From: Escherichia phage WPEC4
Length of the DNA: 64,000 nucleotides
Strand: one strand, 5' to 3'
Sequence record: PV682947.1
Below the pieces are notes generated by a model, which was not told the DNA's origin, searched no databases, and saw nothing but the letters and a program-made list of their open reading frames with translations. Made by a program: the position numbers and the translations under genes. Positions 2,830-7,392 of this stretch are shown here, one piece after another (the first letter of the stretch is position 1; each line of letters begins with the position of its first letter).

Positions 2830-3891
2830 ATGAGCGTATTTGCTGCAACAACAGATGCAAGTAAATCTGTATTCGCTCCAAGCGTGTTAGATGCCAGTCC
2901 TGTTTATGCACCAGCGGCACCGCAAGAAGTTCCAGTTTTGCCTTCTATGACCCGACAAGAGATCGAAGAGATTGGGGCAGAGGCAGGAACAACCTTGCGT
3001 TCCTTGAATGCCGAGGTATTAAAACATCAACGTAGTAATCAAGGCGATCAGATGAGTGAACGACTCACAGCTTTGATTAAACAGGCAAAACAACTTGATC
3101 CAAACTCTATTAAACAAAGCAAGGGTATTACTAAACTCATTAAAAAAGTTATGGGTATGAAAGAAGACCTGTTTGGGGAGTTTGATAATGTTAATAACCG
3201 TATTGAAGAGTTGGTAAAGAACCTTCAAATGGATATTCGCAAAGAAGAAGATTCCTTGGTATATCTTGAAAAGCTACATCAAGCTATTGGACAATATGCT
3301 GCAAGTTTGAACCGAGATATGCAGCTTCTAACAGCAACCTATGAAAAAGAAGAACAAGCTTTGGCTGCTCTTCCAGAAGATGCAGTAGAACAGCGACAAG
3401 TGATCCGAGATACTTTGGATCTTCTGGAGATTCGTATTGCAGATTTAAAAGCATTGCGCCTACTGTGTGTCCAAATGGGACCGCGTGTACAAGGTATGCA
3501 AAAAGTTTCTGCAAGCTTAATGCGATCTGCGCGTAACATAGTAAATAATGTTATTCCTGCTTACTCTGCTAACTTCTCAATGTATATCGAGAGCTTACGT
3601 CAAATGAAAGCAGCAGAGACGCAGAATAACGTTCTTGATGAATTTAACCTGGCAATTAAACTGGGTAGCGATCTTGCCACACAGAATCAGATCGAAGCAG
3701 CAGCACTGGCTAACCGTCAAGTGTTGGATATTGAAACTCTGCGTCACGATCAGGAAAACTTGGTTAAGATGTTGGAAGAAACTAACCGCATCAATACGGA
3801 AGCCCGTGCTGCTCGTGTTGATTATATTAATGAAGTTCAATCTCTGGAAGACGGGATGGTAGCTGCTGTGAAACGAGGGCTTGGTAAATGA
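2830..3891 (+). CDS. hypothetical alpha-helical protein, possibly TelA-like (353 aa)
   Basis: In-frame ATG at 2830 within the track ORF 2725..3891, whose 2725 start is TTG and is preceded by hairpin/T-run structures; TelA assignment is a guess from size, helical character and neighbouring TerD/vWA genes. Confidence 0.55.
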   Translation: MSVFAATTDASKSVFAPSVLDASPVYAPAAPQEVPVLPSMTRQEIEEIGAEAGTTLRSLNAEVLKHQRSNQGDQMSERLTALIKQAKQLDPNSIKQSKGITKLIKKVMGMKEDLFGEFDNVNNRIEELVKNLQMDIRKEEDSLVYLEKLHQAIGQYAASLNRDMQLLTATYEKEEQALAALPEDAVEQRQVIRDTLDLLEIRIADLKALRLLCVQMGPRVQGMQKVSASLMRSARNIVNNVIPAYSANFSMYIESLRQMKAAETQNNVLDEFNLAIKLGSDLATQNQIEAAALANRQVLDIETLRHDQENLVKMLEETNRINTEARAARVDYINEVQSLEDGMVAAVKRGLGK

Positions 3892-4085
3892 GAATCCGTA
3901 TCTATATGATCGATGAAGACATTGGTGTCCGTTATGATGACGAAAAACGATTCGCACCGATGGGAGGCATATATCCCCCAAGCGTTCTAGCAGTTTGTCG
4001 TGATTGTTATATTTATGAAGGTTGTCGTAACTTCCGTAAATTCGAACTCCTTGCAGATATTGACTTCAATGAAGAGGAGGAGTAA
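3888..4085 (+). CDS. hypothetical protein (65 aa)
   Basis: ORF track; ATGA start/stop overlap with the upstream gene. Confidence 0.45.
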   Translation: MRIRIYMIDEDIGVRYDDEKRFAPMGGIYPPSVLAVCRDCYIYEGCRNFRKFELLADIDFNEEEE

Positions 4086-4258
4086 TGAAAATATTACGAG
4101 TGAATATTGAAACTGCTTGGTGTGGATGCAATGAGGTTGTGGATATCGAAATTGAAGATGATATGTCTCAAGAGGATATAGAAGATCTTGCACACGAAAC
4201 CTTTCAGGATTATTGTAATTACGGGTTTCATATTTTAGAGGAGGAAGAAGATGTATAA
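4085..4258 (+). CDS. small acidic Cys-containing protein (57 aa)
   Basis: Hand-translated ORF not in the track (under 60 aa); TAATG overlap with the upstream stop. Confidence 0.35.
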   Translation: MKILRVNIETAWCGCNEVVDIEIEDDMSQEDIEDLAHETFQDYCNYGFHILEEEEDV

Positions 4259-4649
4259 TCCAACAGGTATTCGTTTAAAACTAACAGTAACAGATCCTAC
4301 TCTTTTCACCAAGTTAACCAGTGGTGAAGTTTATGAAGTAATGAAAGATGACGATGGTTGGTGTTATCTTTGTGGTTATTACCTCTGCGATGCAGAAGAA
4401 TTAGAAGCCATTGTAACTACAGGTTTTTACAAAGAGCCAGGCTTCCGTGTGGAAACTACACAGAAACCTGATACCATTACGTTGACTCGACAAGAACTTA
4501 TCACAATCATTGAAGATGCTTTTATTGATGGCTGGAATACACAAGATAATGATTGGGGCGGACCCGAAGCTTTTCTGGAACATCATAAAGCTTATGGAGA
4601 ATTTTGTGAAACCACTGTAGCTCTTGATAATCTGAAGGAGGGTTTGTAA
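4251..4649 (+). CDS. hypothetical protein (132 aa)
   Basis: ORF track; GGAGGAAGAAG ribosome-binding site before the ATG. Confidence 0.55.
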   Translation: MYNPTGIRLKLTVTDPTLFTKLTSGEVYEVMKDDDGWCYLCGYYLCDAEELEAIVTTGFYKEPGFRVETTQKPDTITLTRQELITIIEDAFIDGWNTQDNDWGGPEAFLEHHKAYGEFCETTVALDNLKEGL

Positions 4650-5212
4650 TGGGTTGTTTTAGTTTCTTGTGCAAAGAATCGGGCAAAGCTGCCCTTTCTA
4701 CTTCTTTCGACGGATCGCCTTGCTACCTCTTTCTTTTGAAGGACGGTGTTGTTATTGAAGAAATGTATGGCAACTATGATAGCTACGGCTGTGTTTTCTC
4801 TGGGAAGGAGGATGAAAATGGCGTTCGTGAACGATTTGAATGGGCTATGGACTGGAGTAAGGTTTGTGATTTGATGCATTCCTCGAATCCAAGGGACGGT
4901 ATCGCTATGGTGCTGGAAGAGTATTTTACAGGTGAAATTCCTACAGAACAATCTGACGGAGATCCTAATCAAGGTTGGGGTGATGGTGAAGAAGATCCAG
5001 ATTGTTTTTTCAGCACAGAAAAGAATAAGTTTAAACGTGTTGACAACCCTTATCACAAAGTGCATAATACTCTCATTGAAACAGAAGATGACAAGATGGA
5101 AATTGAAGAAGATGATCCTCTTGTAACACTTCCTATAAGTGAGTTACAAAAGATCACTAAAGAAGCTTACGATTTAGGCTTCAAAATTGGTAGAGGAGGT
5201 ATGCGTGTTTAG
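4649..5212 (+). CDS. hypothetical protein (187 aa)
   Basis: ORF track; TAATG overlap coupling. Confidence 0.55.
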   Translation: MGCFSFLCKESGKAALSTSFDGSPCYLFLLKDGVVIEEMYGNYDSYGCVFSGKEDENGVRERFEWAMDWSKVCDLMHSSNPRDGIAMVLEEYFTGEIPTEQSDGDPNQGWGDGEEDPDCFFSTEKNKFKRVDNPYHKVHNTLIETEDDKMEIEEDDPLVTLPISELQKITKEAYDLGFKIGRGGMRV

Positions 5213-6279: not shown

Positions 6280-6524
6280 TCGACGAGCTTGCCTCTCAAG
6301 TCGTAGAAAATTATTGGCGCGAGAGAGAAGCTTTCATTATGCGCAGTCTCAAAGAATACTTCATTGGGACTGTGCGGATGGAAGATATTGTAAGTAGAGT
6401 AGAGATTCATGTATGGCCCGATTATGAAGAATGGGTTGACAAAGAAAATGAAAATGCTATAATTCTTCGTATAGACAAACCGGAGATAACATTAGGAGGA
6501 AGAAGTGTTAAACTTCGAAATTGA
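6276..6524 (+). CDS. hypothetical protein (82 aa)
   Basis: ORF track; overlapping start. Confidence 0.45.
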   Translation: MIDELASQVVENYWREREAFIMRSLKEYFIGTVRMEDIVSRVEIHVWPDYEEWVDKENENAIILRIDKPEITLGGRSVKLRN

Positions 6525-6774
6525 TGAGCAAAAAGTAAATAAACGATGCCTTACCATTAAAGATTTGGATGTAGGAGATACTTTCGTCTATGAAAATGCA
6601 TTTGACGAAAATGGTTTAGACCTTAGTGAAGTCATTGTTTATTTAAAAGTAGATGATGGGGAAAATGATTATTCTGCTGTAGAACTAAACCATCATGCAC
6701 AATTAGTAACAATCCAAAACACATCTAAGCTTTTGGAAGTAGAATTGACTGTAACTGGTATTACACTTAAATAA
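6505..6774 (+). CDS. small protein, paralog B (89 aa), GTG start
   Basis: GTG preceded by AGGAGGA; paralogous to 5205..5483. Confidence 0.5.
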   Translation: MLNFEIDEQKVNKRCLTIKDLDVGDTFVYENAFDENGLDLSEVIVYLKVDDGENDYSAVELNHHAQLVTIQNTSKLLEVELTVTGITLK

Positions 6775-6789
6775 TAGAGGAGACAAAAG

Positions 6790-7392
6790 ATGACTGATAA
6801 AATTTCCCTGAAAAAAGGCTCTAGCGAAAAAATTTCCCTGAAGAAAGTTGCTCCGGCTCTGAAAGAACTGCGCCTGGAATTCTCTTGGAAATCTAATTCT
6901 AAACTGGATCTGGATGTAAGTGCACTGGTTTGTCGTCATAATGCTGCTGGCAATCCTGAAATGCTGTCTGCACGTCACCTGGTTTGCTATGCTAACAAGT
7001 TTGATCCTGAACGTTCTACTTTCGCTGGCGACGATGTTCGTGATGGGACTGGCAGCATGGAGCAGATTGATATTACTCTGGCTAAAATCTCTCCTGATGC
7101 ACAAGAGATTGCCTTTGTTCTGACCATTGATGATGATACAGGTCTGAAACGTTTTGGTCATGCTTCTGAAGGTATGCTTAAAATCTTTGACTCCGAACGT
7201 AATGTGGAAATTCTGGATTTTGACTTCCTGGCTCCTGAAGTAGCTGGCAACACAATCTGCCACGTGGCCTCCTTGGTTCGTGAAGATGGGGAATGGAAGC
7301 TGAAAGCATATGGTGTAGGTAAAGCGGGTCTGGATATTTGTGATGTGGTGATGGCCTTCGGTGGTAAAAAAGAATGGTATGAATGTCCATAA
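6790..7392 (+). CDS. TerD-domain protein (200 aa)
   Basis: Motif set recalled for the TerD family: N-terminal ISLKKG..ISLKK, DLDVSAL, GDDxxDGTG..EQIDIxL, GEWKLKAYGVG; codon usage rich in CTG/CGT/GGT. Confidence 0.75.
   Translation: MTDKISLKKGSSEKISLKKVAPALKELRLEFSWKSNSKLDLDVSALVCRHNAAGNPEMLSARHLVCYANKFDPERSTFAGDDVRDGTGSMEQIDITLAKISPDAQEIAFVLTIDDDTGLKRFGHASEGMLKIFDSERNVEILDFDFLAPEVAGNTICHVASLVREDGEWKLKAYGVGKAGLDICDVVMAFGGKKEWYECP

Follow-up and report, generated by a model that had tools for sequence, protein, structure and literature searches.

The Ter-type gene module of Escherichia phage WPEC4: TelA, TerF-type vWA and TerD proteins and their possible role in the infected cell

The DNA analyzed here is a stretch of 64,000 nucleotides from Escherichia phage WPEC4 (sequence record PV682947.1), referred to below as the window. 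Between positions 2782 and 7392 it carries one telA, one vWA and one terD gene, interspersed with small open reading frames (ORFs) and followed by an endolysin gene (Table 1). Sequence comparison assigns the window to the genus Phapecoctavirus, i.e., to the phAPEC8-like myoviruses of the subfamily Stephanstirmvirinae. Over positions 2782-8100 it shares 100% identity with Escherichia phages WPEC1 and WPEC6 and 96-98% with about 60 other genomes, e.g., those of phAPEC8, tuntematon, ESCO37 and SKA64. A reading made earlier from the sequence alone had recognized a canonical TerD domain (6790..7392) and a vWA protein with a metal-ion-dependent adhesion site (MIDAS; 5485..6279), had considered the product of 2830..3891 as possibly TelA-like, and had regarded the three together as a Ter-type module. 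Profile searches and structure prediction upheld all of these assignments, and the identity of the module as a set of TelA, a TerF-type vWA protein and TerD is virtually certain. It is not a new kind of element but one that is already known and annotated, as the labels "TelA-like protein," "TerD family protein," "general stress protein 16U"/yceD, "vWA-TerF-like," "TerC family" and "phosphoribosyltransferase" are in use in public records.

The TerD protein matches its Pfam family with 100 bits (cutoff 25.3, E=1.5e-28) over profile positions 3-177 of 187 and belongs to phrog_5698 in the PHROGs collection. Its sequence aligns with that of the solved Klebsiella TerD 2KXT over 179 residues (E=1.1e-15) and with Streptomyces TerD 3IBZ (E=1.9e-14). 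With a whole-domain profile match above the curated threshold the protein is a member of the TerD family. Calcium ligands of Klebsiella TerD have been listed in PMC8779313 (citing Pan 2011) as residues 40, 41, 42, 78, 79 and 89 for site Ca1 and as residues 29, 82, 84 and 88 for site Ca2. The equivalents of the Ca1 ligands are all kept in the phage protein (D40, L41, D42, D81, D82 and E91). At Ca2, W33 and G86 are kept, while G82 is replaced by R84 and Asp88 by Met90.

The vWA protein reaches 130.9 bits against the Pfam vWA-TerF-like family (cutoff 29.4, E=8.9e-38) and falls into phrog_5359. A sequence search of the PDB yielded no match. Its AlphaFold (AF2) model, obtained with a predicted local distance difference test score (pLDDT) of 91 and a predicted template modeling score (pTM) of 0.82, was related by Foldseek to the vWA domains of copine/RGLG, BON1 and integrin proteins with a probability of 1.00. 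The MIDAS is complete (D38-x-S40-x-S42, T109 and D183) and invariant or nearly so in 31 homologues. Profile match, vWA fold and complete MIDAS identify a vWA-TerF-like protein, and the predicted metal sites of the module, i.e., this MIDAS and Ca1 of TerD, are largely intact. The protein is not a TerF proper, in which TerD is fused to vWA, as the part in front of the vWA domain consists only of a 25-residue ISLKK...FSLKK leader. The vWA protein and TerD indeed share the sequence KISLKK, in either case at residues 4-9, as the sequence-only reading had pointed out. It is a family trait and not a device peculiar to the phage, because the tandem motif [IV]SLxK...SLxK (L7, K9, L18 and K20) is invariant throughout the vWA-TerF-like family, in bacterial as well as viral proteins. 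The motif is also present in a Neobacillus protein and in TerD-vWA fusions, where it lies in the inter-domain linker.

In the model of the vWA protein, residues ~125-169 (window 5857-5991) form a long two-stranded beta-hairpin arm that is inserted in the vWA fold. Conserved basic and aromatic residues mark the tip of this arm, where the motif KKGFFNRLLGK starts at K143 (family form KKGFFxxLxGK). The arm is common to stand-alone bacterial vWA-TerF-like proteins, whereas TerD-vWA fusions are devoid of it. Judging from the model, the arm with its KKGFF tip is a plausible candidate for a membrane-binding element or anchor.

The third protein, encoded by the ORF 2830-3891, matches Pfam TelA with 115.9 bits (cutoff 30, E=2.7e-33) over profile positions 13-327 of 332 and the PHROG annotated as "tellurite resistance," phrog_5890, with E=1.4e-134. 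No match was found in a PDB sequence search. The structural model is of moderate confidence (pLDDT 65) and all-helical with a long central hairpin (127-197/203-289), and the near full-length profile match and the all-helical model together establish membership in the TelA family. Position 2830, at which the ORF was originally placed, is not the native start. All full-length TelA homologues comprise 364-370 residues and the native ATG, equivalent to positions 2779-2781, is lost at a join in the window; the 353-residue ORF is therefore a truncation.

This join is one of two that do not agree with the gene order in phAPEC8 and 64 other genomes, the second being located at 57520/57521. Window positions 1-2782 correspond to phAPEC8 58870-61731 on the plus strand and contain the tRNA cluster. 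Positions 2782-21186 map to phAPEC8 118701 down to 101024 and positions 22279-57520 to 99921 down to 61738, both on the minus strand, such that the block 2782-57520 has the opposite orientation to the tRNA flank. Positions 57521-64000 stem from another early region, which lies far away in canonical genomes. The first join lies within the first two codons of telA. In alignments with SKA64 and WPEC1 identity begins only at 2782, and canonical genomes read ...GAATGACAAGTCC at the telA start, where the window reads ...GGGGCTTTTTTACAAGTCC. In 64 genomes the order is SprT-TelA. At the same breakpoint, WPEC1 contains unrelated sequence, WPEC2 has the same tRNA end fused to the opposite side of the breakpoint (SprT-TerC) and in WPEC6 the two segments are ~85 kb apart, i.e., the breakpoint has three different partners in the three sister records. 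Because these records join the breakpoint differently, as opposed to the canonical order in 64 genomes, the junction at 2781/2782 probably reflects contig mis-joining, that is an assembly artifact, and we reject the adjacency of telA and the tRNA genes as real biology. The setting of the module next to the tRNA cluster is a product of this join. For annotation this means that gene order is scrambled in WPEC-type records. The breakpoint at 57520/57521 likewise has differing partners in WPEC1, WPEC2 and WPEC6 and is probably a mis-join as well. In WPEC1 the 77-nt stretch 57444-57520 occurs repeatedly, the repeats adjoining other joins.

The genuine setting of the module can be seen in canonical relatives (phAPEC8 gp47-gp67; SKA64), in which genes on the same strand encode, in this order, a hydrolase, a HAD hydrolase, a phosphoribosyltransferase (PRTase), a Macro-domain phosphatase and the small hydrophobic protein gp51, followed by a promoter, TerC, three unknown genes, a SprT-like protein, TelA, five small ORFs, the vWA protein, two small ORFs, TerD and the endolysin. 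The promoter 5' of terC is predicted as host-type in the phAPEC8 record. Among the upstream genes, Pfam detected PRTase_3 (PF15610, E=1.3e-41), TerC (E=3e-40) and the Macro and SprT-like domains. For HAD, Pfam gave a weak match that did not reach the curated threshold, the designation as HAD hydrolase being that of the SKA64 annotation. Transmembrane segments were found only in TerC and gp51 and in none of TelA, vWA and TerD, which are predicted to be soluble. Genes for TerC, PRTase and HAD are co-located in phAPEC8, SKA64 and seven to eight loci from the IMG/VR database; they are present in WPEC2 and absent from the window, where the junction at 2782 leaves the HAD, PRTase, TerC and Macro genes outside. 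As canonical genomes carry PRTase, TerC, Macro and SprT-like genes upstream, the window covers no more than the downstream half of a Ter system that is relatively complete and of the kind summarized in PMC7824862. In canonical genomes the module belongs to the non-structural replication/nucleotide-metabolism arm, with ribonucleotide reductase (nrd) genes immediately upstream.

With regard to distribution, tblastn detected TerD in 146 phage records, 131 of which show at least 80% identity, while the remainder stem from Brevundimonas and Caulobacter jumbo phages and similar ones. The primase/helicase of the subfamily is present in 133 records at 60% identity or more. Judged from TerD in 131 records vs. 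about 133 with the subfamily primase/helicase, the Ter module is near-universal in the Stephanstirmvirinae. When IMG/VR was scanned with the vWA profile, 55 viral loci were obtained, in which TerC (36 loci), TerD (35), TelA (23) and PRTase and HAD (7-8) are encoded within 10 kb of the vWA gene. Tight TerC-TelA-vWA-TerD operons occur on IMG/VR contigs of ~340-350 kb, and compact clusters of these four genes are seen repeatedly in large phages that are unrelated. The notion that such a module is unusual in a lytic phage can, therefore, not be maintained. Identity across genera amounts to 78% for TelA, 81% for TerD, 72% for TerC and 66% for the vWA protein, as compared to 70% for primase/helicase. 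The ratios of nonsynonymous to synonymous substitution rates vs. phAPEC8 are 0 for TelA, 0.05 for vWA and 0.02 for TerD, and all three proteins are under strong purifying selection. The idea that these could be universally conserved core structural genes is correct as to group-wide conservation but not as to structure, since their arm of the genome is non-structural. In three lineages (L021, an IMG/VR contig of 153 kb; L005; L008) TerC is 72% identical to that of phAPEC8, whereas TerD (30-92%) and vWA (39-73%) diverge widely, which suggests either an unusually strong constraint on TerC or its separate exchange.

Ter clusters are on record for other virulent phages, e.g., phiKp34 (PMC8386662) and PhiPsa374 (PMC9796965). 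The clusters in Klebsiella phage phiKp34, Pseudomonas phage PhiPsa374, Acinetobacter phage vB_AbaM_ME3 and Caulobacter jumbo phages share TerC, a TerF-type vWA protein, TerD and TelA with the system described here, and vB_AbaM_ME3 resembles canonical Phapecoctaviruses also in the presence of PRTase and HAD enzymes. In contrast to these clusters, lineage-specific small ORFs including two phrog_11278 paralogues are inserted between the genes in the Phapecoctaviruses, an endolysin follows and TerD is single instead of double. Sequence identity to jumbo-phage TerD proteins is only 25-30%. Canonical relatives furthermore hold PRTase_3, HAD, TerC, TelA, vWA and TerD just like the Ter-associated module for a nucleoside-like metabolite (Anantharaman, Iyer and Aravind 2012, as summarized in PMC7824862), with the differences that the enzymes lie outside the window and that a Macro-domain phosphatase accompanies them in the canonical relatives.

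Among bacterial systems, the terZABCDEF operons of IncHI2 plasmid R478 and of E. coli O157:H7 and Klebsiella islands likewise feature a TerD domain, the Ca2+ site of which is predicted in the phage protein, as well as TerC and a TerF-type vWA domain. Differences are the lytic phage as carrier, the stand-alone vWA protein as opposed to its fusion to TerD in TerF, and the presence of TelA, which belongs to another bacterial operon (klaA-telA-telB). TerZ, TerA, TerB and TerE were not found in the phage cluster. A complete terZABCDEF set is not present, as neither TerB nor a second TerD paralogue is encoded among gp47-gp67 and TerC is found only in the canonical relatives. An NCBIfam search provided no useful matches. 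The yceCDEFGH genes of Bacillus subtilis encode TerD paralogues, a TerC-family membrane protein and the TelA-like YceH without TerB, and in this they resemble the phage set. They differ from it by the lack of vWA and of PRTase/HAD enzymes and by being part of a host envelope-stress regulon.

The genes between and behind the three main components are more restricted in occurrence. The gp58-gp61 equivalents match solely PHROG families without an assigned function and are found only in close relatives; gp59 shows a weak match to DUF7167, and gp61 differs from its phAPEC8 counterpart by 18 synonymous and no nonsynonymous exchanges. The two phrog_11278 copies are paralogous small acidic proteins (33% identity, E=7e-16), both ending with ...ITLK(KEK), from a family with 7 representatives among 1.8 billion proteins that is restricted to the phage lineage. 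An interpretation as TerD fragments or as parts of a split TerF was rejected (hhalign probability 0.4%). In other genera the interspersed small ORFs are variable or missing. The predicted sigma-70 promoter within gp64 is situated 40 nt 5' of gp65-TerD; both hexamers are kept in phAPEC8, SKA64 and a relative with a 73%-identical vWA protein, and the site is absent from the annotation of the phAPEC8 record. Behind TerD, the endolysin carries an N-terminal hydrophobic signal, and its gene, which is located 3' of terD in 13 viral loci, is preceded by a strong ribosome-binding site. It probably forms a separate transcription unit, because a hairpin, a promoter-like site and its own ribosome-binding site follow terD.

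Table 1. Features of the Ter-type module of phage WPEC4 and its surroundings (positions refer to the window).
Feature	Position	Strand	Remarks
Non-canonical junction	2781..2782	none	Left: end of tRNA region, phAPEC8 61731; right: TelA codon 2, phAPEC8 118701, minus strand
TelA (toxic-anion-resistance family)	2782..3891	+	PF05816, phrog_5890; native 370 aa, here ATG lost, next in-frame ATG at 2830 gives 353 aa
Four small acidic ORFs (equivalents of phAPEC8 gp58-gp61)	3888-4085, 4085-4258, 4251-4649, 4649-5212	+	Lineage-specific
phrog_11278 protein, copy 1	5205..5483	+	E=5.8e-46; directly 5' of vWA gene
vWA-TerF-like protein, stand-alone	5485..6279	+	PF10138; vWA model, intact MIDAS
Small ORF (gp64 equivalent)	6276..6524	+	phrog_22387; only one other locus; holds internal promoter
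Predicted sigma-70 consensus promoter	6436..6463	+	TTGACA-16-TATAAT with TG (extended -10), 12/12
phrog_11278 protein, copy 2 (gp65)	6505..6774	+	E=4.5e-44; directly 5' of TerD
TerD-domain protein, single domain	6790..7392	+	200 aa; PF02342, PDB 2KXT
GC-rich hairpin (7410-7429), then promoter-like site (7430-7458)	7410..7458	+	Between TerD and endolysin
SleB-type (Hydrolase_2) endolysin	7491-8012		TTG start; Sec-type signal (...TPVVAKAEA)

Elsewhere in the window, the DNA polymerase I gene (15255-18587) contains an in-frame insertion of ~244 codons at 17003-17734 that is absent from phAPEC8. The insertion starts with Cys (HYC|VPMDAQ...), ends with ...ITGN|C and looks like an intein from its sequence; no Pfam intein or HNH domain was detected in it at E<=0.01. 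Four consecutive glycosyltransferase genes (8714-11858) between the endolysin block and primase/helicase are conserved in the subfamily. A tRNA-Tyr at ~971-1058, between tRNA-Ser and tRNA-Asn, is annotated in the WPEC2 and phAPEC8 records and was not reported by ARAGORN, while the phAPEC8 record marks the tRNA-Met at 2121-2199 as a pseudo-tRNA.

As to function, we favor a divalent-cation-dependent sub-membrane complex that would protect the envelope of the infected cell and exclude competitors, and assign this reading a probability of roughly 40%. The module would be transcribed by host RNA polymerase early or in the middle of infection. TerC would reside in the inner membrane, and TelA, the vWA protein with its MIDAS and hydrophobic-tipped beta-arm, and TerD with its Ca2+ site would assemble beneath it in dependence on divalent cations. 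This assembly may be responsive to a nucleoside-like compound that the PRTase, HAD and Macro enzymes make, and it would harden or re-tune the envelope in such a way that secondary insults, i.e., DNA entry of superinfecting phages, pore-forming colicins or membrane-directed effectors of abortive infection (Abi), fail until the phage itself lyses the cell. The conserved gene set, the restriction of transmembrane segments to TerC and gp51, the predicted metal sites, the promoters and the phenotypes conferred by bacterial ter operons, namely phage inhibition and colicin resistance (Whelan 1995, as cited in PMC8386662 and PMC9796965), are all consistent with this proposal. A superinfection-related or antiviral role has been put forward for phage Ter clusters before (PMC8386662, PMC9796965, PMC7824862), and Iyer et al. 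(2021) proposed that phage Ter systems serve in competition with superinfecting phages (PMC7824862).

Several points weigh against the sub-membrane complex. Its assembly, its location at the membrane and the timing of its expression are what we infer, and literature searches for functional studies of phage Ter genes or of the Stephanstirmvirinae retrieved no experiment. The Phi and PacB phenotypes have been mapped to terZABCDEF, components of which are missing in the phage. TerB was not matched among the Pfam-scanned ORFs around the module, and PADLOC models (e.g., TerY-P) gave no hit at E<=0.01 for any of eight proteins. The N-terminal motif of the vWA protein is modeled as a helix (residues 7-20), unlike the similar motif in TerD, which forms beta-strands. 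Finally, telA is devoid of its start codon in the window and a terminator-like hairpin lies directly 5' of the truncated ORF, a configuration that is probably artifactual. A more far-reaching version appears doubtful to us: the phage would possess a self-sufficient Ter system operating in hosts without ter, in which a nucleoside-like signal made by PRTase, HAD and Macro enzymes would be read by TerD, vWA and TelA at TerC, with the KKGFF arm as membrane anchor, and would block superinfection, colicins or membrane-acting Abi effectors.

An unlikely alternative is metal homeostasis to the benefit of the phage, in which manganese, calcium or zinc would be re-tuned for phage enzymes such as ribonucleotide reductases or for exported proteins. 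Members of the TerC family transport Mn2+ and further divalent cations and supply secreted enzymes with metal. The canonical module includes TerC with nrd genes just upstream, Ca2+ and MIDAS sites are predicted, and an endolysin with a signal peptide follows TerD in the 13 loci; TerC is reported to contribute to zinc resistance in Klebsiella (PMC12054061). This alternative does not, however, explain the co-conservation of TelA and vWA with TerD; moreover, SleB-type endolysins are not known to need metal, and hairpin and promoter separate the endolysin from TerD.

Quite unlikely is counter-defense, i.e., phage proteins that interfere with, saturate or mimic Ter, envelope-stress or Abi pathways of the host, for instance as decoys. 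Such a role would fit the inhibition of phages by bacterial ter operons (cited in PMC8386662) and the reported frequency of ter islands in avian pathogenic E. coli and O157-type hosts (PMC8193136). On the other hand, a complete set with a membrane component and biosynthetic enzymes looks like deployment and not like mimicry. Furthermore, many phages of the subfamily have been isolated on and infect E. coli K-12 MG1655, which is not known to carry terZABCDEF, and yet the module has been kept universally. Mimicry of a host pathway is therefore improbable as the main role.

The adjacency of TerD and endolysin in the 13 viral loci and the N-terminal signal of the latter could also point to a control of lysis timing, with the module holding the envelope or sensing its state so that the exported endolysin acts on time. 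We consider this very unlikely, as hairpin and separate promoter intervene, Ter clusters of jumbo phages do not adjoin endolysins and the spanin is encoded elsewhere in the genome. An ordinary "tellurite resistance" moron of advantage to the host cell, as implied by PHROG and GenBank labels, is scarcely tenable for a virulent phage without lysogeny functions in the regions examined and with TerZ, TerA, TerB and TerE missing from the cluster, and PMC9796965 concludes likewise for a comparable cluster in a phage. As an annotation, "tellurite resistance" is a misleading label.

What Ter systems do at the biochemical level has been at issue since the 1990s, and the literature acknowledges their retention by virulent phages as a question still to be answered (PMC9796965, PMC7824862). 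In the Stephanstirmvirinae, a subfamily that includes isolates plating on K-12 MG1655, the whole set is kept under selection as strong as that on replication genes. As the set is retained completely and the phages can be plated on K-12, they offer a practical model for deletion and expression experiments and, if the Ter system indeed proved to be self-sufficient, would constitute the first tractable system for defining how a Ter complex acts.

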